Virus record (IMG/VR): IMGVR_UViG_3300009709_000001
Coordinates: 317,336 to 381,335 of that record
DNA: 64,000 nt
Strand: one strand, 5' to 3'
Source: a virus
Lineage: Duplodnaviria; Heunggongvirae; Uroviricota; Caudoviricetes
A program made the position numbers and the translations under genes. The notes below the pieces were generated by a model. The model had not been told where the DNA came from. It saw only the letters and a program-made list of their open reading frames with translations, and searched no databases. How positions within the stretch are numbered: the stretch's first letter is position 1; each line of letters opens with the position of its first letter. Shown here in pieces: positions 13,288-32,857 of this stretch.

Positions 13288-14055
13288 TCAGGCTTTCGCT
13301 GCGCGTTCAGCATCTCTCTTGAGCTTGGCCGCAACCTTAGCATCAAGAGTAGCTTCGGCCTTTTGTACCTTAGCTTCGGCAGCTTTACGTTGATCGCGTT
13401 CACGACGCTTTTGCTTCTGCTCTTCAAGCTTCTGCGCCTTGATTTCTTCCGGCAATGCTGGACGACCACGACCCGGAATAAGTTCCGGATCCAAAGCATA
13501 CGCTTCTTCCCTTAGGGCATCGGCTTTGGCTTCAAGAGCCTGTGCTTCGGTAATGATCTTCTTTGCTCTTGCAACCGGATCAGTCATCAAGCGTGCTGCT
13601 TCTTCGGCGGCCGCAGCCTTTTCAGCCGGAGTACGAGTATCTTCCACTTTAGGTGGAAGAGTCTCGCCACGTTGCTGCGCCATGTACTGATCAACCTTCT
13701 TATCGATTGTTGCATTGATAAGGGCTAGAGGTACTGACTGTCCTGGAAGCGGAACCATTGTTACATTAGCTACCGGCTCCTTACGCAGGAATCCACGTTG
13801 GTGAAGCGAAGTAAGGCAGTTCGTGCCATCCGGGAATGTTCTACGATTTAGAACTTCATAGAAGTTATTCGTTTCTGCAGCTTCTTTCGAATTTAGTGTT
13901 TGAATGACAAAGTCATGGTAACTGTCAGGTAATCTTTCTGTCTCAACGATAAGGCAATGCGAATCGTCGGTTGGAAGAGTTCTGAACACTACAGCTACAC
14001 GTACTCCGGTGTTTACAAGCATCCCGGAGTGCTTTTTGAGGCCTTCAATTGCCAT
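13288..14055 (-). CDS. hypothetical protein (255 aa) with Ala/Lys/Glu-rich coiled-coil C-terminus
   Basis: GC-rich ORF; globular N-terminal half then a long charged alanine-rich helix (AKADALREEAYAL...KAAEAKVQKAEATLDAKVAAKLKRDAERAAKA). Confidence 0.55.
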   Translation of the reverse strand: MAIEGLKKHSGMLVNTGVRVAVVFRTLPTDDSHCLIVETERLPDSYHDFVIQTLNSKEAAETNNFYEVLNRRTFPDGTNCLTSLHQRGFLRKEPVANVTMVPLPGQSVPLALINATIDKKVDQYMAQQRGETLPPKVEDTRTPAEKAAAAEEAARLMTDPVARAKKIITEAQALEAKADALREEAYALDPELIPGRGRPALPEEIKAQKLEEQKQKRRERDQRKAAEAKVQKAEATLDAKVAAKLKRDAERAAKA

Positions 14056-14064
14056 ATTACTCCT

Positions 14065-14487
14065 TTATCCAATGACCGATGCCGGCACATTTGGAAATTT
14101 TCTTTTTAGTTCTTCTCTGAGCTTTGGCTTAACATTGTTTTCGAAATTCTCTTGCACCTTGGCAATACTTGGTGGCCTCGGTGAGAATGGCGCCATAACA
14201 ATCGGCTCGGCCCTTACCCTGATTAAATAATCGATGAGCATATTATTCAACCCATTGTGGGTCATGGCCATATTCATAAGTAAGACTTGAGTGTGCTCAT
14301 CTTCATAATCTAGACTTATAGCCATATAGTAATGTTCGACCCTAACATGCTCACTATGCTCATATTCGTCATCCGTAAGGGTTACTCGATATGAACCAAC
14401 ATTAACGGTTAGATTATTTGCTTCGAAAAAGCATTTAATCAATTCGATGTTTTGTGGTGTTGCGATAATAGTGGTATTCTTAATCAT
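14065..14487 (-). CDS. hypothetical protein (140 aa)
   Basis: Minus-strand ORF. Confidence 0.5.
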   Translation of the reverse strand: MIKNTTIIATPQNIELIKCFFEANNLTVNVGSYRVTLTDDEYEHSEHVRVEHYYMAISLDYEDEHTQVLLMNMAMTHNGLNNMLIDYLIRVRAEPIVMAPFSPRPPSIAKVQENFENNVKPKLREELKRKFPNVPASVIG

Positions 14488-14516
14488 GTTACTCCATGGG
14501 GCTGAAGCTCCATCGA

Positions 14517-14822
14517 TTACTCTGCTTCTGCGGTTGCGGTTGCGGTTGCTTCAGCTTCTTTTTCCTTGGCCTGTACGCTCTCGACGTATGCAAGGAAGCC
14601 GGCAAGCTTGTTATAAGCCTCGCCAACTTGTGAAAGCTCGGCAGCTTGGAATGCGCCACGACGCGATGCCAAATCGACAATACGTGCTAGGACCTGGAGG
14701 TCAGAAACAGAGAGTTGAACTGGTTCGAGCGAAGCAGTTGCTGGTGCGTTTTCAGCAGCGGTTACAGTTTCTTGTACTTCAGGGACAGCCTTCTTGGTAT
14801 TCTTAGCCATTGTTTTCTCCAT
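14517..14822 (-). CDS. hypothetical Ala-rich acidic protein (101 aa)
   Basis: GC-rich ORF, low complexity (ATATATAEAE tail). Confidence 0.45.
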   Translation of the reverse strand: MEKTMAKNTKKAVPEVQETVTAAENAPATASLEPVQLSVSDLQVLARIVDLASRRGAFQAAELSQVGEAYNKLAGFLAYVESVQAKEKEAEATATATAEAE

Positions 14823-14902
14823 ATGTGGTTTAATAATCTACCGTTTTTATTTAGCTGAATTTGCTAAAATCACCCATAATATTGATAATTATCTGGACGA
14901 TT

Positions 14903-15472
14903 TTACAAAGAATACAGCAATGCAGTGATTATAGCGGAATCTTTGGCTTTCTGCAAGTCTAACCAATATTTCTTCCAATATAAATCAACTTCTTCGGGAG
15001 TTTTGAATGGCCGTTGTTTATAGGTGGTATTTCTAAGAGCTTCAGCCCTTTTAGCAATATGCTCGGGTGTTTGTTTACGACCGCGATTAGCATTACCTAT
15101 CTTTTTCTTGTGTTGTTCGGATTTTGGCTTGTCTTTGTGAAGTTTTGAGATTTCTTCAGCCACACGATTTCTTAACCATCCGTACATTTTATTCCTTTTT
15201 ACTTTTCCATCTTTGGACATTCTAACCAATGCGAAAATAAGATATGGATGTTCCGGATATATACGAACTAATAACCTATGTGCAAGCCAATGTTCTTCGG
15301 CTGTTAGTTTAACGATATTTTCGGGATCATCTGTGCCACCTATGCATCGTGGAATTATATGATGCTTTTCGCAATATCCGATAATTTCACGTGATTTGGC
15401 ACATTCGATGAGTTTATTGTATGCTTCTTGATATTTCATAACTTGAGATAATACCAGTGGATCTACATCCAA
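14903..15472 (-). CDS. HNH homing endonuclease
   Basis: 'HHIIPRCIGGTDDPENIVKLTAEEHWLAHRLL' HNH motif; paralogous to the 927..1637 product. Confidence 0.85.
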   Translation of the reverse strand: MDVDPLVLSQVMKYQEAYNKLIECAKSREIIGYCEKHHIIPRCIGGTDDPENIVKLTAEEHWLAHRLLVRIYPEHPYLIFALVRMSKDGKVKRNKMYGWLRNRVAEEISKLHKDKPKSEQHKKKIGNANRGRKQTPEHIAKRAEALRNTTYKQRPFKTPEEVDLYWKKYWLDLQKAKDSAIITALLYSL

Positions 15473-15695: not shown

Positions 15696-15696
15696 G

Positions 15697-16305
15697 TTAG
15701 TCGGAATCCTTATTACTGGGTTCCCGAAGGCGTTGCCTGGGTACATTCACCACATGGATGAGATGCTCGGGCCAATCCACATAGTATGCCCATTCCGGTT
15801 CACGAATTTGAAGTGGCATCGTTTTCTTCTTTGCCAGTATCTCGTAGTAAGTCGGAACATGCGGCATCTTCTTAGGAACAATCTTTGCATTGTCGCCCTT
15901 GGTGCTGTTACAGTCCTTGCAAGCGGTGCAAATATTTTTCCAGTTGGATTTACCACCCATAGACGCAGGGACTACGTGGTCCAGCGTGAGCTCATTCACT
16001 TTGGCTTTTCCGCGGTTTTCCTTGCAATGCTTAGTGATTTGCAGCTGGCACGTGTAGTCGTCACGCAGGTAAATGTTGCCACGTGAATACTTCACCTTCT
16101 TATCCCATGAAACGTGCTTGACCATCATGACAATAGAAGGTACCTTGATCTCAAGCTTTTGAGACTTGATAACCCAGTCGTCGTATTCCTTAACAACCCT
16201 AACCTTACCATTATAGAGCATGTGCAATGCTCGTGCGGCAGGAATCACTGAGAAAGGACTCAGTGACATCGGTTGGCCGTCGGCATTAAGCAGTAATGTA
16301 TCCAT
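15697..16305 (-). CDS. HNH-family endonuclease
   Basis: 'LDHVVPASMGGKSNWKNICTACKDCNSTKGD' is an HNH core (DH..P, N, zinc-binding C..C). Confidence 0.75.
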   Translation of the reverse strand: MDTLLLNADGQPMSLSPFSVIPAARALHMLYNGKVRVVKEYDDWVIKSQKLEIKVPSIVMMVKHVSWDKKVKYSRGNIYLRDDYTCQLQITKHCKENRGKAKVNELTLDHVVPASMGGKSNWKNICTACKDCNSTKGDNAKIVPKKMPHVPTYYEILAKKKTMPLQIREPEWAYYVDWPEHLIHVVNVPRQRLREPSNKDSD

Positions 16306-17346: not shown

Positions 17347-17800
17347 TTGCAGTACGTTCCGGAGGAGTTAGGCCCCATTTGCCCTCTGCAAAACTGCGGG
17401 CGTTAAGCAACGAAATATTTGCTTTTAGCGCGTGTAAATCTGCAATTTTACGCGAGTTAAGCGCGCTGTAATAATGCCGCGCTATGTTGAGCTCACGCGC
17501 ATTTGCGTTGACCCAAATCGCGGTTGTTGTGTTGGGATTGGCTTTGACATATTCGTTGAGCAGCTCAACTGCATCGCCGTAATACGGTTCTTCGACTCGG
17601 CAAATCTGTGGAGTGTCACCATTGGGCAACTCAACCCAATAACGTGTACCTGAACCACCTGCGCCCAAAGGAATGTTATATTCCTCCGAACGAATGGTCA
17701 GAATCTTGTTCATTTCCAGCTCTGTGAACTTGGGAGTTATGCTTTCCAGCGCAACATCCTCTCTCACGAACAACGGAGCATTTTCAAGGCGTTGTAACAC
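17300..17800 (-). CDS. hypothetical protein (166 aa)
   Basis: Minus-strand ORF. Confidence 0.5.
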   Translation of the reverse strand: MLQRLENAPLFVREDVALESITPKFTELEMNKILTIRSEEYNIPLGAGGSGTRYWVELPNGDTPQICRVEEPYYGDAVELLNEYVKANPNTTTAIWVNANARELNIARHYYSALNSRKIADLHALKANISLLNARSFAEGKWGLTPPERTAIVLEYGFDPDRSYDY

Positions 17801-18251
17801 TTTTATCCTTGCATTGAAGACCAGTGATATCCGGATACACCTTTACAAACTTGTCATCAGCAATATCACCGATAAACCAAGTATTGTTCGAAGTTTTGTA
17901 GAAGTTGATACCTTCAACAAAGTACCACCCGATCAACTTATCCGGCTCACTGGTATCGTTGAACAACAGGAAGAAGGCACGTTCACGTGCACCGTCAACA
18001 CAGACCTTGGACATACGTGCATACGGTCGCACCATTGCATCGAGCATTTGTTGCGTGGTAGGCTTTTCCACAGGTTCGGCTGCTGGTTGTTCAACTGCCG
18101 ATGCAGCAGCTTCTACCTTGGCCACTTCCTTAGGCTTATCATCAGAGCAGCCGCTCATAGCGGCAGTCACCAATGCAACATTGAGTGCGGTAAGGATGAT
18201 TGTTTTTAACGGCTTCATATATCTCGTAAGAATGGGGCATTTCTGCCCCAT
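17784..18251 (-). CDS. putative lipoprotein (155 aa)
   Basis: Signal peptide with lipobox 'VTAAMSGC' then a Pro/Ala-rich linker; immediately downstream of the VWA gene on the same strand. Confidence 0.5.
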   Translation of the reverse strand: MGQKCPILTRYMKPLKTIILTALNVALVTAAMSGCSDDKPKEVAKVEAAASAVEQPAAEPVEKPTTQQMLDAMVRPYARMSKVCVDGARERAFFLLFNDTSEPDKLIGWYFVEGINFYKTSNNTWFIGDIADDKFVKVYPDITGLQCKDKSVTTP

Positions 18252-18256
18252 TGTGT

Positions 18257-19456
18257 TTACCTATTGTTTTGGGGCGAATGGTTGTCCGGCTCGTACCAAG
18301 CAGTCATACCAAACGGTGCGACCAGCCGTCGTTGCGTATCGCCGTGGATGAGGAACAGAGTGTCGCAGTAATTCTCGTCACCCCAGCTACCGCAAGGATA
18401 GCCGTCAGTCATCACGATGAAGCGTTCCGGCATCACATCATTTTCCTTCATGTAATCCCAGTTCACTGTGAAGTCGGTACCGCCACCACCCTTCAGATCG
18501 TAGGTATCGATGTCATCGATATTTTCCGGCGTAAAGATCTGCGGGTTGTAAACGCGAGTGTCGAATGTCCAAACGGTAAGCTTGAAGTCCATGAACTGTT
18601 CCATGATGCCCTTGACTTCGCCGAGCAAGTCACGCAGCATGTCTTCAGACATAGAACCCGATGCGTCAATTGCCACAGCGGCCTCGACACGTACATCTTC
18701 CTTCGTACCCGGCAGGTAGATGCCGCTCGACTGAGACTTACGCGAGCAGCGACTCCAGGTGAAGTCATTGCGAATCATCGACTGAATCTTCATGTTCAGG
18801 ATTTCACGCCAATCCATCTGCGGATTGGTCAAATCCTTCAGCATGCGCTTCACACCTGCAGGCACATTGCCAGCGCCAGCTGCCTTCGAAGCTTGCATCA
18901 CGGCAGCACGGATCTCGTCGCCCAGGATACGGCGTTCTTCCTCTGTCATCGGCTCACCCTTGCCATCGCCTGGCTCCAAGTGGATGTCGAATTCGGGGAA
19001 CTTCTGGCTCGGGTCCTTCATTAGGGCTTCGTACACTTCTTCAGCGAACATACCCTTGAACTTGGGATCGAAGCAGGCAGTCACACCAGATGTCTTGGGG
19101 TCGGGGATCTTACCGACACTGTTCTCGTGGAGTTCCCAGTTGATGACGTAGTCGGCAGCAGCGTTCCAAGCCTTCGGCTTACGCGAACCACGACGACCCA
19201 TGTGGTCATAGACGCAGTGTTCCACTTCGTGCGCAACCAAGAAAATCGTTTCTTGTTTGTTCAACTTCAGAATGAAGTTGCGATTGAAGTAGAAACTGCG
19301 ACCATCGGTGGCAGCAGTGGGGCACCAGCCATCGGGATCGTCGGTAGCGTCCTTCAGAATCAAGCGAGTGGCCAACGTGCCCCAGAACGGCTGTTGCAGA
19401 AGAAGAGAGATGCGTGCTCGCGTCAGCTGTTCAAATGCTTTTTCCTGATCGGTCAT
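18257..19456 (-). CDS. VWA-domain protein with N-terminal HExxH metallopeptidase-like domain (DUF2201-type MoxR partner)
   Basis: 'VAHEVEHCVYDH' HExxH motif in the N-terminal half; MIDAS motif 'AIDASGSMS' (DxSxS) in the C-terminal half; GC-rich. Confidence 0.8.
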   Translation of the reverse strand: MTDQEKAFEQLTRARISLLLQQPFWGTLATRLILKDATDDPDGWCPTAATDGRSFYFNRNFILKLNKQETIFLVAHEVEHCVYDHMGRRGSRKPKAWNAAADYVINWELHENSVGKIPDPKTSGVTACFDPKFKGMFAEEVYEALMKDPSQKFPEFDIHLEPGDGKGEPMTEEERRILGDEIRAAVMQASKAAGAGNVPAGVKRMLKDLTNPQMDWREILNMKIQSMIRNDFTWSRCSRKSQSSGIYLPGTKEDVRVEAAVAIDASGSMSEDMLRDLLGEVKGIMEQFMDFKLTVWTFDTRVYNPQIFTPENIDDIDTYDLKGGGGTDFTVNWDYMKENDVMPERFIVMTDGYPCGSWGDENYCDTLFLIHGDTQRRLVAPFGMTAWYEPDNHSPQNNR

Positions 19457-19509
19457 AAATTTCCTTATTTGTTGCTTAATTACACTGTAGCATCACCATT
19501 GACGGACTG

Positions 19510-19731
19510 TCAAAGGGTAGCAAACTTGAGTGCGAAGAGTGTGGCTGTCTCTTCATTCTCAAACTCAATATATGGTGTCCCAAAATGGTCAATCATTCCG
19601 TACTCTGCCTTCATTTTTCTCCAGAACTCCTTAACCTCTTCAGAATCAATATCACCATTGGTTCCATAGATGCTGACATAGTTATTCCAGGCTTTGCCAA
19701 ATTGACCTTCGTATACATTCACGAGATGCAT
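19510..19731 (-). CDS. small protein, member of tandem paralog family (C-terminal 'YIEFExEExAxLFxLKF')
   Basis: 73 aa, ends 'GTPYIEFENEETATLFALKFATL'; first of four tandem paralogs. Confidence 0.5.
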   Translation of the reverse strand: MHLVNVYEGQFGKAWNNYVSIYGTNGDIDSEEVKEFWRKMKAEYGMIDHFGTPYIEFENEETATLFALKFATL

Positions 19732-19741
19732 TTTATTCTTA

Positions 19742-19963
19742 TTATGTCCATTTTAGGAGGAAGATTGTTACATCCTCCTCGGTTTCAAATTCGAGTTTAT
19801 GTCGATCAACAACTCTGATACATTTGATGTCTCTGAATGCTCGTTCAAGGCCTCCTTTGCCATCGAATTGAACTTGATCGACAAAGTTAGACCATGCGTT
19901 ATTATTCTTTTCGGAGGCCTTGGGACCGGTAACAGTTAGGTATCGAGACATTATACTGACCAC
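19742..19963 (-). CDS. small protein, tandem paralog family member
   Basis: 73 aa, ends 'HKLEFETEEDVTIFLLKWT'. Confidence 0.5.
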   Translation of the reverse strand: MVSIMSRYLTVTGPKASEKNNNAWSNFVDQVQFDGKGGLERAFRDIKCIRVVDRHKLEFETEEDVTIFLLKWT

Positions 19964-20169
19964 CTCAGAAGAAATGCAGTTGCATCCTCATCTTCTTCAA
20001 ATTCAATATATGGTGTGTCCCACAAATTATGTCCACCGAATTTTGCCAACTCTTCGAAGATGTCGTAGTAGGGTGTCGGACTATTTTCCGAAATATAATC
20101 ACGAAATCTTAACCATTCGGTTCGGTGTAAACCACCATTGACTATATCTAATCTTGTTGTCATGCCCAT
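19951..20169 (-). CDS. small protein, tandem paralog family member
   Basis: 72 aa, ends 'DTPYIEFEEDEDATAFLLRWSV'. Confidence 0.5.
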   Translation of the reverse strand: MGMTTRLDIVNGGLHRTEWLRFRDYISENSPTPYYDIFEELAKFGGHNLWDTPYIEFEEDEDATAFLLRWSV

Positions 20170-20357
20170 CTGAGCTTGAAGATCAATTCCTGTTCTTCAG
20201 ACTGGAACGGAATTTTTAGCCAATTAATATTCGTACCTAGGTTGAATTGTCGACCTTGATCAACTAACCAGGCCTCGTATTCAAGGCCAGTACCGCCAAT
20301 ATACTTACGAAAATAATCATAAGCATTTTCGAAATAGGGTTGTATCGGGAGTGCCAT
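20160..20357 (-). CDS. small protein, tandem paralog family member
   Basis: 65 aa, ends 'KIPFQSEEQELIFKLRWA'. Confidence 0.5.
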   Translation of the reverse strand: MALPIQPYFENAYDYFRKYIGGTGLEYEAWLVDQGRQFNLGTNINWLKIPFQSEEQELIFKLRWA

Positions 20358-20418
20358 AATTTATATCATATATTTTAACAAAATTAGTTATAGTCTGCAA
20401 GATATAAACATAAATACT

Positions 20419-21405
20419 ATGGTAAATGTATTCTATAAGGAATTTCTAAAGATGAAGACACACAAATGCGAAAATATGACTTGCCAGAATAAATCCGAAA
20501 AGGATAAGTACGGCAATTATAAAAGATACTGCTCGGATGAATGCAAAAAGGTATCGAGATTATTAAAATTCAAAGAAACATATCAACATAAAGATATGGG
20601 TGCAATATTACAAAAACGAAAAGATACATTATTGTCTAAGTATGGTGTCGAGAACGCAGCATGTATATCTGAGGTCAAAGAAAAACTGCGTATAACCACT
20701 ACTAATACCGCGCAAATCCGCACAATAAAAACTAAAGAGACAAACTTAGCACGTTACGGCGTTGAGAGTACAAATTCCCTTGAGTCTGTTCAAGAGAAGA
20801 AAAAGCAAACCTTACTTGAAAGGTACGGCGTAGATCATCAACTTAAAATACCAGGAGTAGCTGCCGAAGTTTCGAAGAAGAATTCGGAAAATGCTAAGGA
20901 GCGACTAGTAAAGTCGAAGAAGACCAATCTTGAAAGATATGGATGTGAAAATCCATCTGCAAACGAAGATATCAAACTCAAAAGAACTGCAACTATGATT
21001 GAACGGTTCGGTGTAGAGAATGCATCGCAGAATGCTAAGGTTCAGTCGAAAAAAGTCAGGGCCGGCTTTAAGACTAAAAAATATACTTTCCCGTCCGGAA
21101 GAATAGACCATGTCCAAGGATATGAACCTTTGGCACTCAGTCAACTTTTACAGGAGGGATATCAAGAAAATGACATTATTACGCTTGATGAATTGATGCC
21201 GGAACTATGGTATCATGAATCGGATGGATCTAAGCGCAGATATTTCCCAGATATTTATATCCCGAAAGAAAATCTATTAATCGAAGTTAAATCCGAATAT
21301 ACTTATCGCGGATTTATTGGTTGGCTAATAACCAACCAATTAAAAGAGCAATGTGCCAGAGATGCTGGATTTAATTATCGACTAATGATAATGGTAAAGA
21401 AATAA
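20419..21405 (+). CDS. putative PD-(D/E)xK-type homing endonuclease with seven N-terminal ~22-aa 'RYGVE' repeats
   Basis: Plus-strand insert between minus-strand genes. It carries tandem repeats (LLSKYGVENAA..., NLARYGVESTN..., LLERYGVDHQL..., NLERYGCENPS..., MIERFGVENAS...). The C-terminus 'FPDIYIPKENLLIEVKSEY' fits a PD...(E)VK nuclease core. 'CATAAATA' lies 2 nt upstream of the ATG. Confidence 0.6.
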   Translation: MVNVFYKEFLKMKTHKCENMTCQNKSEKDKYGNYKRYCSDECKKVSRLLKFKETYQHKDMGAILQKRKDTLLSKYGVENAACISEVKEKLRITTTNTAQIRTIKTKETNLARYGVESTNSLESVQEKKKQTLLERYGVDHQLKIPGVAAEVSKKNSENAKERLVKSKKTNLERYGCENPSANEDIKLKRTATMIERFGVENASQNAKVQSKKVRAGFKTKKYTFPSGRIDHVQGYEPLALSQLLQEGYQENDIITLDELMPELWYHESDGSKRRYFPDIYIPKENLLIEVKSEYTYRGFIGWLITNQLKEQCARDAGFNYRLMIMVKK

Positions 21406-25608: not shown

Positions 25609-25641
25609 GTCAACTGAGTTTTACGTCAATTGGAACTGGTT

Positions 25642-26820
25642 TTACCAGTCGCTGCTGCCGGAATCGCTGCTGGAGCTGCTGCCGGAGTCGGACGAACCCC
25701 AGCTGCTGCCGCTGTCGCTGCTCGAACTGGACCAGCTGCTGGAACGGCTGCTGCTGTCGTCATCGTCACGGCTGGACGAATAGCTCGGAGCAGGGGCCGG
25801 CGCGTAGTACGGTGCAGGGGCGGGAGCCGGTTCCGGGGCAGAGCTGGAGCTGAACTCGGAAGTACCACCCCACTCGGCGTCGTCCTTGGCCGAGCTGCTG
25901 AAGGTCGGTGCAGGTGCCGTGATCACGGGCGGGGTGTACGTCGAAGCACTCGAACTGTAGTCACTGGTGCCCGAGGATTCCTCGCGGCGTCGACGAGTCA
26001 CAGTGTCATCATCATGACGATGACGGAGCGCATCGCTGATCATGTTGCCAGCAACCACACCACCTGCCACTGCCACACCCGTTTCCAGAGCCGACGGACC
26101 GGTATGGACCACGGTCGGAGGAACATAGGTGGGTGCCGGAGGAGCCGTATAGGTGCGCGACGGACGGGACCATGCAGCCGGGCTCGGTGCCGGAGGCGTC
26201 GAATAGGTGCTGCGAGTGGTACCCATACCGCTACTGGCCGTGGTCACAGAGGAGGGAGCCGAGGTAGCGGTTGCAGTCACAGGACTGGAGAAGTCGACGC
26301 CACCGTCTTCAGACTTGGTCCGGCGATACCAGTAGTAGCCCAGGCCACCCAGCGTGAACAGGAACAGCAGAACCAGGAACTTGGAACCGAACGAGCTGCC
26401 TTCATCGGCCGGCTTCGTTACCGCCACGGGTTGTGCCTGCACTTGAGGTGCAGCTTGGACGACCACGGGAGGAGGGGGCGGCACATAGGCCTGGACCACC
26501 GGCTGACGGGCGCCGGCGATGTCGCGTTCCATCTTGGCGAACAGGCGCGAACCGAGCACGTCACCCTTGTGATCGTATGCGCGGACGGCGTCCAGTTCAC
26601 GCTGGGCGAGATTGGGGTCTCGTTCCAGACACATGATCGTTGCCGCATTCAGCAGGTGAGCGCGAGCGCTATCCGGGCGCGACACCAGGATCTCATTCAC
26701 GTAATTGCGCGCTTGGGCGCAGTTGCCGTTTTCCAGGGCGGATTCGACCTGCTTCGGACTGGGGAGGGCCATTGCGGTCGCAGACAGCAAGGCAAGGGAA
26801 AGGGACAGAATACGCTTCAT
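25642..26820 (-). CDS. secreted bitopic protein with TPR-like N-domain, poly-Pro linker, TM helix and Ser/Thr/Pro-rich tail (392 aa)
   Basis: Signal peptide (LSLSLALLSATAMALP), then a helical TPR-like segment and 'PPPPPVVVQAAPQVQAQP'. This is followed by the TM helix 'FLVLLFLFTLGGLGYYWY' and a long S/T/P/A-rich tail ending in SSSDSGSS repeats. About 65% GC; the antisense plus ORF 25630..26826 is judged spurious. Confidence 0.6.
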   Translation of the reverse strand: MKRILSLSLALLSATAMALPSPKQVESALENGNCAQARNYVNEILVSRPDSARAHLLNAATIMCLERDPNLAQRELDAVRAYDHKGDVLGSRLFAKMERDIAGARQPVVQAYVPPPPPVVVQAAPQVQAQPVAVTKPADEGSSFGSKFLVLLFLFTLGGLGYYWYRRTKSEDGGVDFSSPVTATATSAPSSVTTASSGMGTTRSTYSTPPAPSPAAWSRPSRTYTAPPAPTYVPPTVVHTGPSALETGVAVAGGVVAGNMISDALRHRHDDDTVTRRRREESSGTSDYSSSASTYTPPVITAPAPTFSSSAKDDAEWGGTSEFSSSSAPEPAPAPAPYYAPAPAPSYSSSRDDDDSSSRSSSWSSSSSDSGSSWGSSDSGSSSSSDSGSSDW

Positions 26821-26843
26821 GTGTAGCTCCTTGGGGGTGAAAA

Positions 26844-26865
26844 CTGGGGCCCCGAAGGGCCCCAG
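26844..26865 (-). terminator. GC-rich hairpin terminator/attenuator after AAA ATPase gene
   Basis: Minus-strand RNA: CUGGGGCCC-UUCG-GGGCCCCAG followed by UUUUCACCCCCAAGGAG(RBS)...AUG of the next gene. Confidence 0.5.
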
Positions 26866-26868
26866 GGG

Positions 26869-27966
26869 TCAGATTGCAGCCATCCAGTCGTAGTTGGCGC
26901 GGCCGTACACCTCACGGGTGAACACCACGACCGTCTGCGCCGGCGTACCTTCGTCGACCACGTAAGTGAACGTACCCGCTTCCGGTTCGATGCGCTTCAG
27001 GTGCTTCGGATTCAGCTCCAGGGTGAAGCTGTCGTCCTTGTCTTCCGGGCAGCCGGCCGACTCGCCAACGCTGATGTTCAGCTCTTCGCTGGCCACCGGG
27101 CTTCCGCGCCACGTGTCGGGGTAGATGCGGTTGGTGTCGATCGCCTTGCCTTCGCGGATGATGCTGACCTTGTGGCGCATGCTGCTGTCGGCGAACGGTT
27201 TCGCGTTGAGCAGTTCCAGCACTTGGTGCGGCGTCTCGTTGTAGCGGTTCATGTCTTCGACCAGCGCCTTCAGCATGTCGAAGTTGAAGCTTTCGTACAG
27301 CATGGCCAGACGGCAGATCGTCGGGATGTGCGTCTTGTCGTTGAGGCGATCGTTGCAGTATTCTTCGATGAACGCTGCGTCGATGCCCTTGTACTCCAGG
27401 CAGTAGAAGACACGACCCGGCCGATTGCGCATGTGGCTGTTGACGCGGTACTTGTCGTTGCAGGTCAGGATGAACAGCTTCTTGCTCGGGAACACGCCGT
27501 CGAGCAGGGTCAGGATAGCTTCCTGTTCCTTTTCGCCGAACACCTTCTCGAACTCGTCGAACACGACCACGCACGGCTGGTTGATGTTCTGAATGAAGGC
27601 GTTGAAGCCGTCACCGCAGAAGTCGCTGTTGATGACCAGGACGGGCATGTTGTGCGCTTCAACCGCGTTCTTGGCGATGAGCTTGGCCAACATCGTCTTG
27701 CCCGAACCCTTTTCGCCGGTCAGCAGCACACCAGTGCTGTTCGGGCGATCGAGGAAGGTGCTCATGATGCGATCAGCACGGCCGTGGATGTTGCCGTAGA
27801 TCTTGCCGTCGATGTTGAAGTTGTTGATGGGCTTCAAGAAGAAGCCTCGGCCCGGCATTGCACCGACCGTGTACGTGCCCGGGGGCAGCGTCTCGTGCAT
27901 GTCGAGCGCCGCTTTCGGGGTGGGGAAAAACAAGCCGCCTTCGCGGGAGAAAATGGTGCTACTCAT
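26869..27966 (-). CDS. classical-clade AAA ATPase (365 aa)
   Basis: Walker A 'GEKGSGKT', Walker B 'VVVFDEFE', SRH-like 'TCNDKYRVNSHMRNRPGRVFY'; a ~90-aa N-terminal domain; GC-rich. Confidence 0.8.
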   Translation of the reverse strand: MSSTIFSREGGLFFPTPKAALDMHETLPPGTYTVGAMPGRGFFLKPINNFNIDGKIYGNIHGRADRIMSTFLDRPNSTGVLLTGEKGSGKTMLAKLIAKNAVEAHNMPVLVINSDFCGDGFNAFIQNINQPCVVVFDEFEKVFGEKEQEAILTLLDGVFPSKKLFILTCNDKYRVNSHMRNRPGRVFYCLEYKGIDAAFIEEYCNDRLNDKTHIPTICRLAMLYESFNFDMLKALVEDMNRYNETPHQVLELLNAKPFADSSMRHKVSIIREGKAIDTNRIYPDTWRGSPVASEELNISVGESAGCPEDKDDSFTLELNPKHLKRIEPEAGTFTYVVDEGTPAQTVVVFTREVYGRANYDWMAAI

Positions 27967-28056
27967 CGCTTCTTTCTTGGTTGCGGGATAAATCCCTGGT
28001 TAAATTTGTTTAACAGTCTCTATTTTATGCAGACGCGTGCGGTGACGCAACTGATT

Positions 28057-28287
28057 TTATAGGTTGTAGTTTCTGATCCAGGAAGCCGTTTCTTCGTTGT
28101 CGGTATACAACATAATTTTCGAATGCGGATCGTAACCCTGCTTTTCGATAATATATGTTTTCGAATCAACGGAATCCTTCAGAGAGCGGAAGAAATCCGC
28201 CATTTCCAAAAGATTCTCCATATTGATCTGGCCAAAGTTGAAACCAAACTTGGCCTTCCGTGCTTTCACTTCAACAAAGACACTCAT
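28057..28287 (-). CDS. hypothetical protein (76 aa)
   Basis: Minus-strand small ORF; ends 'LYTDNEETASWIRNYNL' (acidic motif echo). Confidence 0.4.
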   Translation of the reverse strand: MSVFVEVKARKAKFGFNFGQINMENLLEMADFFRSLKDSVDSKTYIIEKQGYDPHSKIMLYTDNEETASWIRNYNL

Positions 28288-28364
28288 AGCGTACCCACCA
28301 CAGTTTCATCTTTTAATTTCCAAATGCCATCGCCAATTATTGGTCCAAAAAGATAAATAAACAT

Positions 28365-29192
28365 ATGAATACTCCATTTCTAAATAACAAATATACTGCC
28401 CGATATTATAAAATTATTAATACCGTTTTAGAATTAAATCGAAAGAAATTAAAAAGAAATAACCCTGATTACAGGTATTATGAATTGCATCATATTATTC
28501 CCAAATCATTAGGTGGTGACAATTCTTCTGCAAATCTTATACCTTTGACACCAAGGGAACATTATATATGCCACCTTTTACTCACCCGAATGACTGAAGG
28601 TAAAAATAGATATAAGATGCTCTGTGCATTCAACAGAATAACAAATAGAGGCCAGGCAGAAATTAAAAATTCTAGATTATATAATTCTATTCGAGAAGAC
28701 TTTTCGAAATCGCAGGCCGAAAATTATAAAGGTGATAAAAATCATTTTTATGGAAAGACTCACACAAAAGAAATCAGAGATTATTTAGCTGAGGTATGTC
28801 CACGATTCGGTAAAGATAATGGCAATTTTGGTAAATCATTATCTCAATCACAAAAAGATGCAATTTCGAAAAGTAATAAATCCAGAAAAATTATACCTCC
28901 ACCTCCGCAACTCGGTTCAAAAAATCATTTTTCTAAGATTTATAAAATAATCGACCCAACCGGTAATAAATTTACAATAAAATGCATGAGTGAATTTTGT
29001 GAAAGAAACAATCTTTGTAGTCGAACAATGATTTTATTTAAGGACAAAGGAAAAATTCCTGAATTGCAATTCGAACGAGAATATCGTGTAAAGAATCTCC
29101 AAGCAAAGAAGAACTGTGAAGGTTATTCTATTATTTCAATGACCTCGCCCCTTGGTCCTTTTCCATCAATCGACCATACAGTTACCGGATAA
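28365..29192 (+). CDS. HNH homing endonuclease with NUMOD-like repeats
   Basis: 'YYELHHIIPKSLGGDNSSANLIPLTPREHYICHLLL'; GATAAATA at 28352-28359 lies only 5 nt upstream of the ATG. Confidence 0.85.
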   Translation: MNTPFLNNKYTARYYKIINTVLELNRKKLKRNNPDYRYYELHHIIPKSLGGDNSSANLIPLTPREHYICHLLLTRMTEGKNRYKMLCAFNRITNRGQAEIKNSRLYNSIREDFSKSQAENYKGDKNHFYGKTHTKEIRDYLAEVCPRFGKDNGNFGKSLSQSQKDAISKSNKSRKIIPPPPQLGSKNHFSKIYKIIDPTGNKFTIKCMSEFCERNNLCSRTMILFKDKGKIPELQFEREYRVKNLQAKKNCEGYSIISMTSPLGPFPSIDHTVTG

Positions 29193-29626
29193 GTAACTGT
29201 TTCTTCAATAATGCTCTTAATTATATTCCACGAACCTCCGCCGAGGCCAGCACCAATAAACGGAATATGAATTTCCTTGGGTTGAAGATCTGCCATGCTT
29301 TCGAAGCCAGCATTTAGGTAATCCTCAACTTGTTGAAAACAAGTCTGAACTGCGTCATAACTTGTATGACGACCTGGACCACCAAACCCGTCTTGTGTCA
29401 CGGCATTCCAAATCTTGAGATTGATCGTTGCCAGAGATGGATATGCATTACCGAGTTTAAGCTTACCGGCTTCATATAGCTCACGGTAATCAAGATACAC
29501 ACTCGGATAAAGATTCTTGACTCCGAGCGCAACACCCGAACCCATCACACCTTGTGCGTTACAACCATGGACAATATGTCCGGCTGTGACATTGAACAAA
29601 TTACCGGTTTTGACTTGGATCTTCAT
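29123..29626 (-). CDS. macro-domain protein (ADP-ribose binding/processing)
   Basis: 'GHIVHGCNAQGVMGSGVALGV' matches the macro-domain N-AAN...GGGV signature, and 'IHIPFIGAGLGGGSW' matches the second glycine-rich loop. Confidence 0.7.
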   Translation of the reverse strand: MKIQVKTGNLFNVTAGHIVHGCNAQGVMGSGVALGVKNLYPSVYLDYRELYEAGKLKLGNAYPSLATINLKIWNAVTQDGFGGPGRHTSYDAVQTCFQQVEDYLNAGFESMADLQPKEIHIPFIGAGLGGGSWNIIKSIIEETVTYPVTVWSIDGKGPRGEVIEIIE

Positions 29627-29636
29627 TTCTTACCTT

Positions 29637-30155
29637 TCAGTATTCGGCAGGACCTTCTTCGATCTCGGGACGAACAATTTCGACACGAGCGCAATACTTC
29701 TCTTTCCACGACTTGTAAGCTTCCTTGACAAAGCCGTCCGGATCATTGCGATGTGCTTCCTTATATTCTTGGCGTTTCTCACTAAACCAAGACATTAGCG
29801 CTACGAAGCCTATTGCAAGGCCAAGGACAGCGATGACACCCATGGCGAGCTGGGCAACCTCGCTGAAGATGAACATGCCATACCAGAGGCTGAAACCGAT
29901 GCCAACAAGTATTTGCGACACGACAAAAGATGCAAGAGTTACACCGAGCAGAATAAGCCCGATTGTCAACAATGAAAACAGGAAGTATCTTGTGTAGGAA
30001 CAAATATCCACAAGGTCACGATCGCGTGCCGGTGTATATTTGTAAATCATCTTGTAATGCCAGCTATCGGGGCTAAACTTGAGAGTTTTCATTATTCGAT
30101 CCTTTGGTTGAGTGTTTTGGTTACATCTTCGATCAGAATGTCCTCGGGGATCCAT
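29637..30155 (-). CDS. membrane protein (172 aa, ~3 TM)
   Basis: Hydrophobic helices (YFLFSLLTIGLILLGVTLASFVV, IGFSLWYGMFIF, AMGVIAVLGLAIGFVALM). Confidence 0.5.
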   Translation of the reverse strand: MDPRGHSDRRCNQNTQPKDRIMKTLKFSPDSWHYKMIYKYTPARDRDLVDICSYTRYFLFSLLTIGLILLGVTLASFVVSQILVGIGFSLWYGMFIFSEVAQLAMGVIAVLGLAIGFVALMSWFSEKRQEYKEAHRNDPDGFVKEAYKSWKEKYCARVEIVRPEIEEGPAEY

Positions 30156-30544
30156 TCGACCTTGTGACTTTCGTACACACGGGTATAGAACTCGCTGCTG
30201 CCGAACAGATCGTGCACAAATTCATGAGCACAATCACCGAAGTCTTCGGTGTCGAGATATTCGGCAATGTTCTCATCGGGCATTGCTTCCGGAGGATGCC
30301 TCTTGAATAGTGTGCGCATTGCAGCAACGTAGGTCTTTTGCTCCCTGTCATTAGGCTCATACATATTACCGAAACCAGCCGGCCAGTTGTTCTTCGATTT
30401 GTGTAGAAGGGCAAGTTCGACCAACAACTTGACTTGAGGAAGAGTAAGACCTTCGGTAATGGTTGTGTTGTAACTATCACCGTCATTTTCCCATGACGTG
30501 ACAGTCAATCGGTAACCCTTAGGGATTCGTGTTTGGACGCTCAT
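30092..30544 (-). CDS. hypothetical protein (150 aa)
   Basis: Minus-strand ORF; partially overlaps its neighbour. Confidence 0.45.
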   Translation of the reverse strand: MSVQTRIPKGYRLTVTSWENDGDSYNTTITEGLTLPQVKLLVELALLHKSKNNWPAGFGNMYEPNDREQKTYVAAMRTLFKRHPPEAMPDENIAEYLDTEDFGDCAHEFVHDLFGSSEFYTRVYESHKVEWIPEDILIEDVTKTLNQRIE

Positions 30545-30759
30545 TTCTTACCTTTCAGTTTTTCTACTACCTTTTCCATATCGTATAATGCCTTGCATTC
30601 AGGTGGCATACCGATACTTCCTACGACTGCCATACAAGTGGTGCAGCGATAACTGATTCCACTTGAGATATCGAATTCTGCAATACTTCCACAGAGCAAC
30701 TCGATGTCAGGCTCATTACTCGGTTCTATATAAGACCAATCAGGATTTGATTTCCACAT
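30541..30759 (-). CDS. small Cys-rich zinc-ribbon-like protein (72 aa)
   Basis: 'LCGSIAEF...CTTCMAVVGSIGMPPECKAL' could form a four-Cys site. Confidence 0.4.
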   Translation of the reverse strand: MWKSNPDWSYIEPSNEPDIELLCGSIAEFDISSGISYRCTTCMAVVGSIGMPPECKALYDMEKVVEKLKGKK

Positions 30760-30762
30760 CTT

Positions 30763-31035
30763 TTATAAATTCTTTCCGGAGAGTTTCGCAATTATTTGTT
30801 CTTCTTCAATAAATTTCTTCGCTTCGGTTATGAACGTAAGTAGCTCATTCGGACTTACCTTAGTGCTTAGGCTGAAATTACCCTGAGACATAATCAGTTC
30901 GCCATTGCTCTTGATTGCTATTCTAACATCCTTACTGGCATAACCAGTACTTGCATCACACTGTTGGACTTCAATGCCGATTCGATCGGATTGACCTTCC
31001 ATCTCATTAACCGTTAAATACCGTACAGTTGTCAT
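30763..31035 (-). CDS. hypothetical protein (90 aa)
   Basis: Minus-strand ORF. Confidence 0.4.
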   Translation of the reverse strand: MTTVRYLTVNEMEGQSDRIGIEVQQCDASTGYASKDVRIAIKSNGELIMSQGNFSLSTKVSPNELLTFITEAKKFIEEEQIIAKLSGKNL

Positions 31036-31112
31036 TGTGTTTGTGTGCGTGTGGCGTTGCGTATTGTGCGTTGGAATTTAACGTTAAAACCGTGCAATTT
31101 AGCGTGGCTGCT

Positions 31113-31307
31113 TTAGATTCTGCCCTGTAGCTTTAAAAAGGTATAGCGCTCTTGCAAAGCTTCGTTAAACTCTTCGAGTGTCCAACCCCTCATTTCGCAA
31201 ATCTTGGTTAGTACTGCCGCATCTGTTATCGACGTGTTCATTCGATAAATTGCAAGTTCATTTCGCAATACATCAAAATCACACTTTACAATAGGTGAAT
31301 GGTCCAT
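31113..31307 (-). CDS. hypothetical protein (64 aa)
   Basis: Minus-strand small ORF. Confidence 0.35.
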   Translation of the reverse strand: MDHSPIVKCDFDVLRNELAIYRMNTSITDAAVLTKICEMRGWTLEEFNEALQERYTFLKLQGRI

Positions 31308-31340
31308 GCAACATTATTGCACGGACCATCGAAAACTACA

Positions 31341-31359
31341 ACAGGGCCAAGGGCCCTGT
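31341..31359 (-). terminator. GGGCC-core hairpin after SPFH gene
   Basis: ACAGGGCC-AAG-GGCCCTGT starting 6 nt past the stop at 31365, followed on the minus strand by UGUAGUUUUCG. Confidence 0.45.
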
Positions 31360-31364
31360 GTTTC

Positions 31365-32612
31365 TTAGCGCTTGTTGGTTGCTGCGCCGCCCTTGACCGA
31401 CAAGTCGATGCCCATTTCACGAGCAGTCTTTGCCGTCATCAGGTCCACCAGATCAGTTGCACGGCTGGCCGAACCACCCGAACCCGATGCGCCCATCACC
31501 ACTTGCGGGCTCCAAGCACCCGGTTGTGCCTTCTCGATCGCCGCTGCGTACAGGCCGTTGATCTTGACCAGCGCTTCCAGCTTCTTGTCCAGTTGACCGT
31601 CAGCTTCCATGACCAGGCGCTTGCGAGTTGCTTCACCTTCACCGCGCAGCACTTCAGACTTCTTGAACGCTTCTGCTTCCTTGACTTGCGCTTCCGCGAT
31701 CGTCACTCGAGCTTGGGCTTCAGCAATCGTCTTCGCAGCCAGGGTCTTTTGTTCCCATTCGGCCTTGGCAGCGTTTGCCTTACCTTGAGCTTCGGCAGTC
31801 AGCGTATCCTGGTCGGCCTTCTTCGCAGTTGCGATGGCCACCACAGCCGCGTTCGTTGCCGCCTGTTGTTCCTGAATCTGCTTCTCGACACGGTCCTCGT
31901 ACTTGAAGCCCGAGATCGTCATCGGCAGCATCTGCACGTTGTACTTCTGCACATAGCTGGCCTGAGCACGCAGCGGAGCACCCTTTTCATCCTTGATGAT
32001 CTCGGTGACCGTCATGTCCTTTTCCACACCAGCGATGTCCTTGGCACGAACCACCACGCTTCGCGTCTTGTAGACGCCGTTCAGCGTTTGATCGTTCATG
32101 ATCTGCAGGAGTTCGTTGCGACGACCAGCTGCCGATTCGAACGAAGTCATCGTCGGACCGGAGAAGGTTGCAGCCGATTCCATGGAGCGTCGGATGGCTT
32201 GCAGCTCGAAGGCTTCGGCCGAACGGAACTCCTTGTGGATCTCGATCACGTCTTTCGGCGTCAGGGGCATCAGCCACGAGATGGAGCCGCAGAGTGCCGC
32301 GTTACCGCCGTCATAGAAACGAATCGCCAGACCAGCGGATGCTTGCGCATGAGCTTTGTCAGTGTCGTTCTTGGCGCAGGCCGGGTCGATGAACTTCAGT
32401 TCGTTACGACGCGGGTACTTGGTGACAGTGCCGAAGCCTTGCCATTTCCAGCCCGGGTCGGTATATACCGCCAGTTCGCCCGACATCGGGCTTTGGATCA
32501 CCATGATCTCCGATGCATCCAGGTTCTCCACCAGCATGGGCGCCGAGATCATCAGGAACAGGGCCACGAAAGCGGCACTGCCGCCAATCAAAACACGTTT
32601 CAAGGACATCAT
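31365..32612 (-). CDS. SPFH/Band-7 (flotillin/HflK-like) membrane protein
   Basis: N-terminal TM helix, a band-7-like core, then a long Ala/Glu/Lys-rich coiled coil (AEAQGKANAAKAEWEQKTLAAKTIAEAQARVTIAEAQVKEAEAFKK); GC-rich; the antisense plus ORF 31299..32672 is judged spurious. Confidence 0.7.
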   Translation of the reverse strand: MMSLKRVLIGGSAAFVALFLMISAPMLVENLDASEIMVIQSPMSGELAVYTDPGWKWQGFGTVTKYPRRNELKFIDPACAKNDTDKAHAQASAGLAIRFYDGGNAALCGSISWLMPLTPKDVIEIHKEFRSAEAFELQAIRRSMESAATFSGPTMTSFESAAGRRNELLQIMNDQTLNGVYKTRSVVVRAKDIAGVEKDMTVTEIIKDEKGAPLRAQASYVQKYNVQMLPMTISGFKYEDRVEKQIQEQQAATNAAVVAIATAKKADQDTLTAEAQGKANAAKAEWEQKTLAAKTIAEAQARVTIAEAQVKEAEAFKKSEVLRGEGEATRKRLVMEADGQLDKKLEALVKINGLYAAAIEKAQPGAWSPQVVMGASGSGGSASRATDLVDLMTAKTAREMGIDLSVKGGAATNKR

Positions 32613-32857
32613 TCCTTCTTCTCCAGTTGTGCCTTACGGCGGTTGATTTCATCCAGTTCTTCGCGAAGGTGAACGTATTCACGCGCTTCTTCGAGCTCGT
32701 GCTCGGCAGCGTCGACCTTCACCTTCTGCTCCGTATCCTTGCGGAAATTCGGGAAAAGAGGAGTGCCGTACGCCAGCGGCAGACCGACTTGGGTTACGAA
32801 TAGAATCGCAACGCCAAACAGGGCGGCCAAAATCAGCAAATCAAGCAAAACAATCAT
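32609..32857 (-). CDS. small single-pass membrane protein co-transcribed upstream of SPFH gene (82 aa)
   Basis: TM helix 'MIVLLDLLILAALFGVAILFV', then a charged helix; its stop overlaps the SPFH gene start (ATGA), as in flotillin/NfeD-type pairs. Confidence 0.45.
   Translation of the reverse strand: MIVLLDLLILAALFGVAILFVTQVGLPLAYGTPLFPNFRKDTEQKVKVDAAEHELEEAREYVHLREELDEINRRKAQLEKKE

Follow-up and report, generated by a model that had tools for sequence, protein, structure and literature searches.

The DNA analyzed here, referred to as the window, is a 64,000-nucleotide (nt) stretch of the IMG/VR virus record IMGVR_UViG_3300009709_000001, in which seven minus-strand genes are set off from a phage backbone by their GC content. 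The mean GC content of the window is 43%, and its 500-nt composition profile rises above 50% in four blocks, at about 18.0-19.5, 21.5-23.0, 25.0-28.0 and 31.5-33.0 kb, with troughs of 32-38% GC between them. Per-gene statistics gave a GC of 0.52-0.64 and a GC content at third codon positions (GC3) of 0.60-0.86 for the seven genes, which are called island genes here and which encode a MoxR-like AAA+ ATPase, its vWA-like partner, a second AAA+ ATPase (AAA2), an SPFH/Band-7 protein, a Ser/Pro-rich protein and the products of a transmembrane (TM) gene and a small TM gene (Table 1). A sequence-only reading of positions 13288-32857 had assigned MoxR, VWA, AAA, SPFH and Ala-rich proteins to high-GC islands, and these products were matched by Pfam and translation evidence. 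It had also called the backbone T4-like, which is loosely right; the DNA polymerase (983 amino acids, aa) is nearest to those of the jumbo phages Phosso (Sinorhizobium), Atu_ph07 (Agrobacterium) and the RaK2 type, with 39-43% identity, and such protein comparisons place the window in a group of uncultivated jumbo phages whose relatives are PA5oct, Phosso, Atu_ph07 and RaK2-type phages.

A megablast search of 18000-33000 against 50,697 phage records gave no match at the DNA level and, as there was no close cultured relative at that level, comparisons were made by protein and with metagenomic contigs. The closest relative, L143, was reached through the AAA2 homologue P0003, and eight IMG/VR loci (L001-L008) were taken from among hundreds of MoxR relatives there. 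The MoxR protein is 84% identical to its orthologue in L143, 72-76% to those in L001-L008, and 48.5% to PA5oct gp335; for the Phosso and Atu_ph07 ATPases the figure is 37.5%, and for the 121Q and CBB ones 30%. It matched Pfam AAA and AAA_5 above and AAA_3 below the cut-off, and phrog_1297 at 1e-97. The vWA protein (89% identity in L143, 75-83% in L001-L008, 51% to PA5oct gp340) matched DUF2201_N (5e-36, residues 10-250, putative metallopeptidase), DUF2201 (3e-12, residues 260-384, vWA-like) and phrog_1314. The two genes lie 2 kb apart, with small open reading frames (ORFs) and an inserted endonuclease gene between them, and in L143 nothing but an 82-aa ORF comes between them. Identity to the SPFH orthologues is 94% in L143 and 71% in L001; the small TM gene overlaps the SPFH start by 4 nt, and the two are probably co-transcribed. 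Orthologues of the TM gene in L143 and a further relative, L147, are 73-75% identical, with GC3 of 0.54-0.57. The Ser/Pro-rich protein, whose low-complexity tail is about 200 residues long and which is secreted or membrane-anchored by its sequence features, evolves fast, with 49-52% identity to the proteins at the same position in L143 and L147 against 73-94% for its neighbors, and it gave neither a PHROG match nor a solid Pfam match. PHROG phage families cover all the island genes apart from this one and the small TM gene.

Table 1. Features of the window discussed in the text (Nc, effective number of codons, with the value expected from GC3 in brackets; TM, transmembrane)
Positions	Strand	Length (aa)	GC	GC3	Nc	Feature
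18257-19456	-	399	0.535	0.65	42 (57)	vWA gene: vWA-like protein with N-terminal putative metallopeptidase domain; partner of the MoxR ATPase
21484-22710	-	408	0.584	0.80	34 (47)	MoxR gene: MoxR-like AAA+ ATPase
24922-25545	-	207	0.569	0.70		TM gene: Ala-rich protein, signal peptide, C-terminal TM helices (from translation and phrog_19575)
25642-26820	-	392	0.635	0.69		Ser/Pro-rich gene: signal peptide, TPR-like region, one TM helix, Ser/Pro/Thr-rich low-complexity tail (from translation)
26869-27966	-	365	0.592	0.86	31	AAA2 gene: second AAA+ ATPase (Pfam AAA 3e-12; phrog_2376 5e-92)
31365-32612	-	415	0.579	0.69	34 (54)	SPFH gene: SPFH/Band-7 protein, N-terminal TM helix (Pfam Band_7 5e-6; phrog_11908 6e-44)
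32609-32857	-	82	0.522	0.60		Small TM gene: TM and coiled-coil protein; orthologue in L143 73% identical
3626-4294	-			0.68	43 (54)	Further gene of the island class, outside the range of the sequence-only reading; phrog_8313
13288-14822	-			0.40, 0.40, 0.41		Claimed first island, rejected: three backbone genes (z about 0)
20419-21405	+	328		0.34		DUF7487 gene (Pfam 7e-56), Hef-like repeat motifs; absent from L143
24129-24881	+	250		0.25		NUMOD3 gene (Pfam 7e-14, well above cut-off); absent from L143 and L147
28365-29192	+	275		0.23		HNH gene (HNH_4, HNH, NUMOD3); absent from L143 and L147
19484-19513	-					Sigma-70-like promoter TTGACA-18-TACAGT, 28 nt upstream of vWA start
22752-22780	-					Candidate promoter TTGACT-17-CATAAT, 42 nt upstream of MoxR start, followed by GGAGAA Shine-Dalgarno
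25584-25613	-					Sigma-70-like TTGACT-18-TATAAT (11/12), 39 nt upstream of TM gene
32903-32930	-					Sigma-70-like TTGACC-16-TATAAT (11/12, extended TG), 46 nt upstream of small TM/SPFH unit
4311-4283	-					Promoter-like site (11/12) overlapping annotated start of 3626-4294
21405-21431	-					Intrinsic-terminator-like hairpin, 12-bp stem and T run, directly 3' of MoxR
24876-24902	-					Terminator-like hairpin directly 3' of TM gene
31341-31359						Perfect 8-bp GC-rich hairpin directly 3' of SPFH gene; terminator score on both strands

The GC3 of the other 87 candidate genes is 0.399 +/- 0.078, and the comparison of islands with backbone that had been proposed as a check gave a significant difference (Mann-Whitney p = 6.8e-6). 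Four of the five segments first claimed as islands are thereby real, and the fifth, 13288-14822, has ordinary GC3; only its GC1 is raised (0.65-0.68), in two of its three genes, because of amino acid composition. The islands had been put at 60-70% GC; they are GC-rich relative to the backbone, with a true range of 52-64%, and the backbone figure of 38-45% holds, the DNA polymerase gene having 41.5%. The edges of the islands coincide with gene borders, that is with start and stop codons, and the intergenic DNA beside them has 36-46% GC, the sole exception being the 48-nt spacer 26821-26868. Thus the rise in GC is confined to reading frames and does not extend over regions. Within the frames it is confined further, as GC2 is 0.38-0.39 in the ATPase genes, which is the backbone value, and 0.38-0.44 over the islands, which is backbone-like; only the low-complexity Ser/Pro-rich gene (GC2 0.61) has second positions that add to its high GC. 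Among orthologues of the island genes GC3 spans 0.19-0.75 and GC2 only 0.31-0.40, and the slope of GC12 (first and second positions) on GC3 is 0.06-0.21. Proteins of genomes with 65-70% GC have an Arg-rich, Lys-poor profile. The island proteins have 6.4% Lys and 5.0% Arg, with no shift in the Lys/Arg ratio, and amino acid composition was dismissed as a cause for all the islands, save in part for the Ser/Pro-rich gene. Long antisense ORFs do lie opposite the islands (18251-19024, 21517-22734, 25630-26826, 27001-28062 and 31299-32672), as had been remarked, though not there exclusively, since they also occur opposite 3626-4294 (GC3 0.68) and the RtcB gene at 35619-36884 (GC3 0.54); they are the expected by-product of GC-rich third positions.

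The codon usage of the island genes goes beyond what their GC3 predicts. Their Nc, where scored, is 31-42, or 11-21 below the GC3 expectation, and among the genes scored in the window AAA2 has both the highest GC3 and the lowest Nc and the SPFH gene the largest Nc deficit. The endonuclease genes lie on the expectation curve (deficit about 2-3), and the backbone genes scatter between. Preferred codons in the islands are CTG (0.66), AAG (0.92), ATC (0.81), TTC (0.92) and CCG (0.61), whereas GGG (0.00), CGG (0.04) and AGG (0.01) are avoided though G-ending, and GAA (0.68), CGT (0.40), GGT (0.42) and GCT (0.26) are kept though A- or T-ending. Lys and Glu both offer a choice of A or G after an A, and a GC-ward bias of mutation or conversion could not produce AAG at 0.92 beside GAG at only 0.32. 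The island genes are also nearly free of TTA, ACA, AGA, CCA, GGA and TCA. For some codons the backbone has the same preference in weaker form (AAG 0.57, CGT 0.35, GGG 0.03) and the endonuclease genes the opposite one (AAA 0.71, AGA 0.47, ATA 0.36), so that with respect to these codons the genes of the window form a single gradient, with the unadapted selfish genes at one end and strongly adapted genes at the other; across all 59 codons the usage of islands and backbone is uncorrelated (rho -0.01). Three marks of translational selection were found together, namely an Nc below the GC3 curve, codon-specific preference and bias of the same genes in diverged relatives, and the suggestion of a distinct selective regime on these genes was supported by a bias that exceeds the GC3 prediction, is codon-specific and recurs across the clade for MoxR and vWA.

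Most of the island genes also appear to be separate transcription units. A scan of the whole window gave 29 sites that match the sigma-70 consensus at 10 or more of 12 positions. Candidates at or just upstream of the start belong to five of the six GC3-rich transcription units and to 6 of the 86 other genes (Fisher p = 5e-5). In four of the five island units the candidate promoter ends 28-46 nt before the start codon. A promoter-like site 21-29 nt upstream was found for the vWA orthologues in L143, L006, L007, L002, L004 and L008, and L143 has a matching site 39 nt upstream of the orthologous small TM/SPFH unit. The MoxR site keeps its position in the relatives examined, and in an alignment of the region upstream of MoxR in 10 genomes, the only invariant or near-invariant blocks were TTGAC, (C/T)ATAATA and GGAGAA. 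Its promoter motifs, as TTGAC and TATAATA, occur around the transcription start sites of PA5oct, which depends on host RNA polymerase (PA5oct paper). The 150 nt upstream of AAA2 and of the Ser/Pro-rich gene yielded no site of 9/12 or better, and PA5oct gp335 and gp340 had none upstream either. At the other end of the units, the best-scoring terminator-like hairpins come directly after the MoxR, SPFH and TM genes.

The same genes are biased in related phages. The comparison covered 62 related IMG/VR loci that each carry four or more further ORFs of at least 150 aa. Set against the local median, the Nc deficit of MoxR was larger in 100% of them (p about 1e-11) and its GC3 higher in 98%, with a median difference of +0.12; for vWA both the GC3 and the Nc deficit were higher in 91%. 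AAA2 orthologues of at least 43% identity were GC3-elevated and more biased than their neighbors in most loci, and distant homologues in other phage groups were not. In all eight close relatives the island orthologues were more biased than their neighbors. In AT-rich L002 they were the most biased genes with a GC3 of just 0.24-0.36, the codons affected being CGT (0.56 vs 0.26 in the rest), AGA (0.04 vs 0.31) and ATA (0.03 vs 0.35); high GC3 is thus the form that codon optimization takes in the lineage of the window and not an inherent property of these genes, since those of L002 are biased without it. In the 33.3% GC genome of PA5oct, with a median GC3 of 0.228, the ATPase gene gp335 reaches 0.67 and the vWA gene gp340 0.50, the major capsid protein (MCP) and tail sheath genes having 0.30 and 0.25; its host PAO1 has 66% GC (PA5oct paper). 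In Phosso the MoxR and vWA genes both have a GC3 of 0.77, against about 0.6 in their neighbors.

The avoided codons direct attention to tRNA supply, as the tRNAs of PA5oct read UUA, ACA, AGA, CCA, GGA and UCA. These six codons make up 0-6% of the Leu, Thr, Arg, Pro, Gly and Ser codons in the islands of the window, 19-26% in its backbone and 31-50% in its endonuclease genes; in PA5oct the share is 2% in gp335 and 8% in gp340, the genome median being 36%. All other PA5oct genes that are GC3-rich and poor in the six codons lie within gp34-gp105, in the terminal repeat (L084, PA5oct 7.5-38 kb), and most genes of that range are highly transcribed early genes (PA5oct paper). The relative synonymous codon usage of the window islands correlates with that of the GC3-rich PA5oct genes (rho 0.80) and of gp335 and gp340 (rho 0.74), and with the backbone of neither phage. 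The record of gp335 notes that the protein was detected with mass spectrometry (ESI-MS/MS). About ten small PA5oct genes (e.g. gp38, gp53, gp55, gp57, gp80, gp86 and gp98) have a GC3 of 0.5-0.77 together with a high GC1 of 0.62-0.68, and some of them may be host-derived rather than only codon-tuned. A tRNA scan of 28 related loci found tRNAs in three distant ones only. In a distant MoxR-bearing clade (about 50% identity), ARAGORN called tmRNAs at L052 901-1230 and L066 2013-2473, with the tags ANDELFLAAA and ANDDYFYQEVKLAA, and L052 also carries a cluster of tRNA genes.

Taken together, we consider it likely that the islands are vertically inherited jumbo-phage genes under codon selection in situ, and not imported DNA. 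Translational selection would be the most likely mechanism, favoring efficient expression from the RNA polymerase and tRNA pool of the host. It would have driven synonymous sites to a narrow preferred set (CTG, AAG, ATC, TTC, CCG, CGC/CGT and GGC/GGT) and would still hold them there; acting on an AT-leaning background, it would raise GC3 to 0.6-0.86 inside the frame and leave sharp edges at gene borders. Most island genes would be separate units with a candidate sigma-70 promoter, a strong Shine-Dalgarno sequence and often a terminator of their own, and the low-GC stretches would come from two sources, weakly selected backbone genes and three AT-rich endonuclease genes on the opposite strand. 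The island genes are probably under high expression, early expression or both. A simpler model, in which highly expressed genes are GC3-rich, was dropped, as the capsid genes of PA5oct and of the clade relatives have a GC3 of 0.26-0.32, and these genomes seem to hold two different optimized codon sets. The island genes may be tuned to the tRNA pool of the host and the late structural genes to a pool that includes phage-supplied tRNAs; genes without phage-tRNA codons could reach their full translation rate in the first minutes of infection, before phage tRNAs accumulate. That the island genes are expressed early and independently of phage tRNAs is a tentative proposal, to which we would give somewhat less than an even chance. 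No more likely is its extension to group 2.2-type jumbo phages as a whole, which would have two codon dialects, a small, conserved, separately promoted set in host codons, led by MoxR/vWA and in the lineage of the window joined by an AAA+ ATPase and SPFH/membrane proteins, and the rest, including the capsid, AT-leaning and served by phage tRNAs.

Several observations weigh against this interpretation and limit it. Three genes that are not GC3-rich (41180-41638, 5050-5394 and 61389-62000) have equally good promoter-like sites, and because of such well-promoted genes promoter type alone fails to predict the bias. Shuffled sequence has as many promoter- and terminator-like sites in total as 17500-33500, so that only the position and conservation of the motifs carry weight. 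A tRNA scan of the 64-kb window found none, and the comparison of codons therefore rests on the tRNAs of PA5oct. A match to host codons, likewise, would rest on resemblance to the GC3-rich genes of PA5oct, a Pseudomonas phage (rho 0.74-0.80), and the text of the PA5oct paper gives no temporal class for gp335 and gp340. The major capsid genes of relatives are themselves strongly biased (Nc 34-42 vs 49-54 expected), but toward A/T-ending codons, with ACA at 0.62-0.78, CCA at 0.61-0.78, CGT at 0.56-0.88, GAA at 0.92 or more, CTG at 0.00 and a GC3 of 0.26-0.32; one of these genes (L213 1501-2670) is on the same IMG/VR contig as L093, and the others (L199, L202 and L222) are from the same samples as other relatives. 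Finally, the GC3 of the TM gene is raised only in the closest relatives, and, since its distant orthologues are not elevated, the clade-wide claim covers MoxR and vWA and, of the AAA2 orthologues, the closer ones only.

Selection might instead act on the mRNA, with GC-rich third positions shielding it from AU-targeting ribonucleases or tuning its folding, and so giving long-lived messages. The bias is indeed confined to the coding sequence of separately promoted and terminated units, and the authors of the PA5oct study discuss a faster RNA turnover in infection. Nonetheless, a pattern that retains U-ending CGT, GGT and GCT, favors GAA and shuns GGG and CGG points to codon-anticodon effects, and the avoided codons are precisely those read by the PA5oct phage tRNAs, which leaves selection on the message itself an unlikely explanation. 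A neutral directional process, whether GC-biased gene conversion or transcription-associated mutation, is very unlikely. It could draw on the separate promoters and probably strong transcription of the islands, and on the G or C ending of most preferred codons; however, it would raise GGG, CGG and GAG, which are as low as 0.00, 0.04 and 0.32 beside an AAG of 0.92, it does not account for an Nc 11-21 below the GC3 expectation or for the 36-46% GC of the untranslated flanks of the same units, and the genes of L002 are biased without being GC-rich.

The other alternative offered by the sequence-only reading was repeated acquisition from a high-GC donor, which would mean that each island was picked up separately from a bacterium or phage and is not yet ameliorated. 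The sharply atypical composition with edges at gene borders is what such a history would leave, mobile endonuclease genes adjoin three of the islands, and one AAA2 homologue, 50% identical, belongs to Microbacterium phage Pumpernickel, a phage of actinobacteria. The comparison with relatives contradicts it. L143 keeps the order RtcB, small TM gene, SPFH, AAA2, Ser/Pro-rich gene, TM gene, MoxR and vWA without all three endonuclease genes, an arrangement assembled independently from at least four sequencing runs (L143-L146). L143 has an orthologue at the corresponding position for each of the island genes (49-94% aa identity), and L001-L008 have orthologues of most of them in the same order, so the islands are syntenic also in relatives that lack the endonuclease genes. 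Over the whole comparison with L143, conserved genes are 74-94% and fast-evolving genes 37-55% identical. The island orthologues in L143 have a GC3 of 0.75, 0.61, 0.54, 0.73, 0.64 and 0.57, the values elsewhere being 0.30-0.50 except for an HNH orthologue (0.54), and per-gene GC3 in the window and L143 is correlated at r = 0.95 over 22 genes. At fourfold degenerate sites of conserved residues the island genes differ from L143 by 0.40-0.57; in the backbone the difference is 0.39-0.42 for conserved genes and reaches 0.82 for others. There was no recent transfer, given that island divergence is as high as that of the conserved backbone.

Neither does the identity of the island proteins to those of relatives follow composition, for it is flat overall while the relatives' GC3 ranges over 0.29-0.75, and that of MoxR stays at 72-76% over a GC3 of 0.32-0.75. 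A search with MoxR of one genome each of 185,579 bacterial and archaeal species gave no homologue above 56% identity; the best matches in bacterial assemblies, at 56% or less, sit on contigs of metagenome-assembled genomes (MAGs), and chromosomal homologues in Calothrix, Deinococcus and Herpetosiphon are 32-37% identical. The closest AAA2 homologues (74-79%) are all on metagenomic contigs of phage size, and the best 120 are metagenomic proteins, many on contigs of 50-390 kb. Of the attributes of genomic islands, atypical composition was found, and a patchy distribution, homologues in a donor lineage and donor-like composition at all positions were not. With GC1, GC2 and amino acid usage backbone-like, and GGG and CGG avoided, acquisition from a high-GC donor is extremely unlikely.

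The low-GC side of the mosaic includes three plus-strand genes of endonuclease type between the islands, with 32-37% GC and a GC3 of 0.23-0.34, each matched in only one or two of L001-L008. They stand directly beside the MoxR, TM and AAA2 genes. The DUF7487 gene is probably a homing endonuclease gene; its protein has weak repeat similarity to the putative homing endonuclease gp339 of PA5oct and gave no match in a sequence search of the PDB, and at its site L143 has only the 82-aa ORF. In the HNH gene the HNH and NUMOD3 scores are just below the curated Pfam cut-offs. In PA5oct, too, a homing endonuclease gene lies between those for the ATPase and the vWA protein, and the MoxR-vWA junction looks like a recurrent insertion site. 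The truly inserted, mobile elements at this locus are these AT-rich predicted endonuclease genes.

Such genes might have replaced alleles by co-conversion with a co-infecting, uniformly high-GC relative. Their positions in the window and in PA5oct, and the wide variation of overall GC among relatives, lend this some appeal, but the same islands are present in L143, L147, L001 and L006 without these endonuclease genes, the close clade yielded no member of uniformly high GC, and MoxR stands above its own neighbors in every related locus. Furthermore, the edges follow start and stop codons with no decay with distance from the endonuclease genes, and synonymous divergence reveals no recently shared tract, which makes endonuclease-driven replacement hardly credible. 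An assembly artefact, with fragments of a high-GC organism built into a phage scaffold, is virtually out of the question, for although the window is metagenomic and an identical 5.4-kb stretch is found in Logan assembly SRR5829574, the same gene order and mosaic recur in L143-L146, L147, eight IMG/VR contigs and the finished genomes of PA5oct and Phosso.

Some other genes of the window bear on the gradient of codon adaptation. In 3626-4294, the further gene of the island class, the true start is probably a downstream ATG (MNQST...). The RtcB RNA ligase gene (Pfam 6e-129, Nc 45) is 90% identical in L143; a gene for a macro-domain protein (29123-29626) lies in the same region, a weak radical-SAM match was obtained for 47572-48453, and the RtcB and macro-domain region may be an RNA-repair or tRNA-repair module of intermediate codon adaptation. 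The gene at 15697-16305 (HNH_5, 7e-12), on the main coding strand and with a GC3 of 0.56, is shared with L143 and with seven of the eight close relatives (orthologues 56-73% identical), and seems to be an HNH gene that has become domesticated or fixed, not a mobile one. The 352-aa product of 11297-12355, on the minority plus strand, has no Pfam match; orthologues in L001, L004, L005 and L008 (51-56%) are also inverted, and it is a conserved opposite-strand gene, unlike the inserted endonuclease genes.

GC islands in phage contigs are easily mistaken for transfer or for chimeric assembly, and here they are better read as selection in situ, the true mobile DNA being the AT-rich endonuclease genes, which insert repeatedly beside the most conserved genes. 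The codon bias and the candidate promoters constrain when and how heavily the MoxR/vWA chaperone pair is used, and its codon profile could serve as a signal of host composition for uncultivated jumbo phages. If the two-dialect proposal is true, MoxR/vWA would be an early, heavily used device of host takeover or proteostasis, rather than or besides a late assembly chaperone, and the GC3 of MoxR alone would report the codon preference and rough GC class of the host. The clade-wide codon bias of MoxR and vWA was not mentioned in the literature searched, and this link and the two-dialect pattern merit a short follow-up.

Among known systems, the free-standing homing endonuclease genes of T4-like phages resemble those of the window in their HNH/NUMOD3 or Hef-like motifs, their place between conserved genes, their AT-richness, their lack of codon adaptation and their variable presence among close relatives, a likeness known here from sequence, with cleavage only predicted. 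Horizontally acquired genomic islands share with the present ones a GC content sharply off that of the surroundings and mobile-element genes nearby; in contrast to them, the islands of the window are conserved and syntenic, with a shift in synonymous sites only, a bias beyond GC and no donor-like homologues found. Codon-usage classes in T4 are reportedly tied to expression time and to the T4 tRNAs, according to work of Cowe and Sharp from 1991 in J Mol Evol. The likeness to T4 lies in two codon dialects in one genome with phage tRNA supply as a candidate cause; the difference is that in the window a link to early expression would rest on promoter type and on analogy with the early region of PA5oct. 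The MoxR/vWA-metallopeptidase pair itself was described by Iyer, Anantharaman, Krishnan, Burroughs and Aravind as conserved in group 2.2 jumbo phages, with a proposed role in virion assembly and without remark on composition (Iyer et al. 2021, PMC7824862). The window has the same pair in the same phage group, a MoxR AAA+ protein and a vWA protein with N-terminal metallopeptidase domain encoded by neighboring genes, and adds to that account that, clade-wide, no part of its neighborhood is as codon-biased as the pair and that each gene has a conserved sigma-70-type candidate promoter; high expression, early or constitutive, would explain the pattern no less well than a late role in assembly. In phages generally, GC3 and codon landscapes have been traced to translational selection, the adapted genes being those of head and tail proteins (Lucks, Nelson, Kudla and Plotkin 2008, PMC2266997). 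Here, as there, GC3 and preferred codons vary by gene within one phage for reasons of translation and not of foreign origin; here the adapted genes are non-structural (MoxR/vWA, AAA+, SPFH and membrane proteins), the capsids of relatives are biased toward A/T-ending third positions, and the amplitude is unusually large, with a GC3 of 0.86 against 0.40. The islands are thus a new and rather extreme case of a known phenomenon, with the MoxR/vWA pair as its most consistent carrier across the group.

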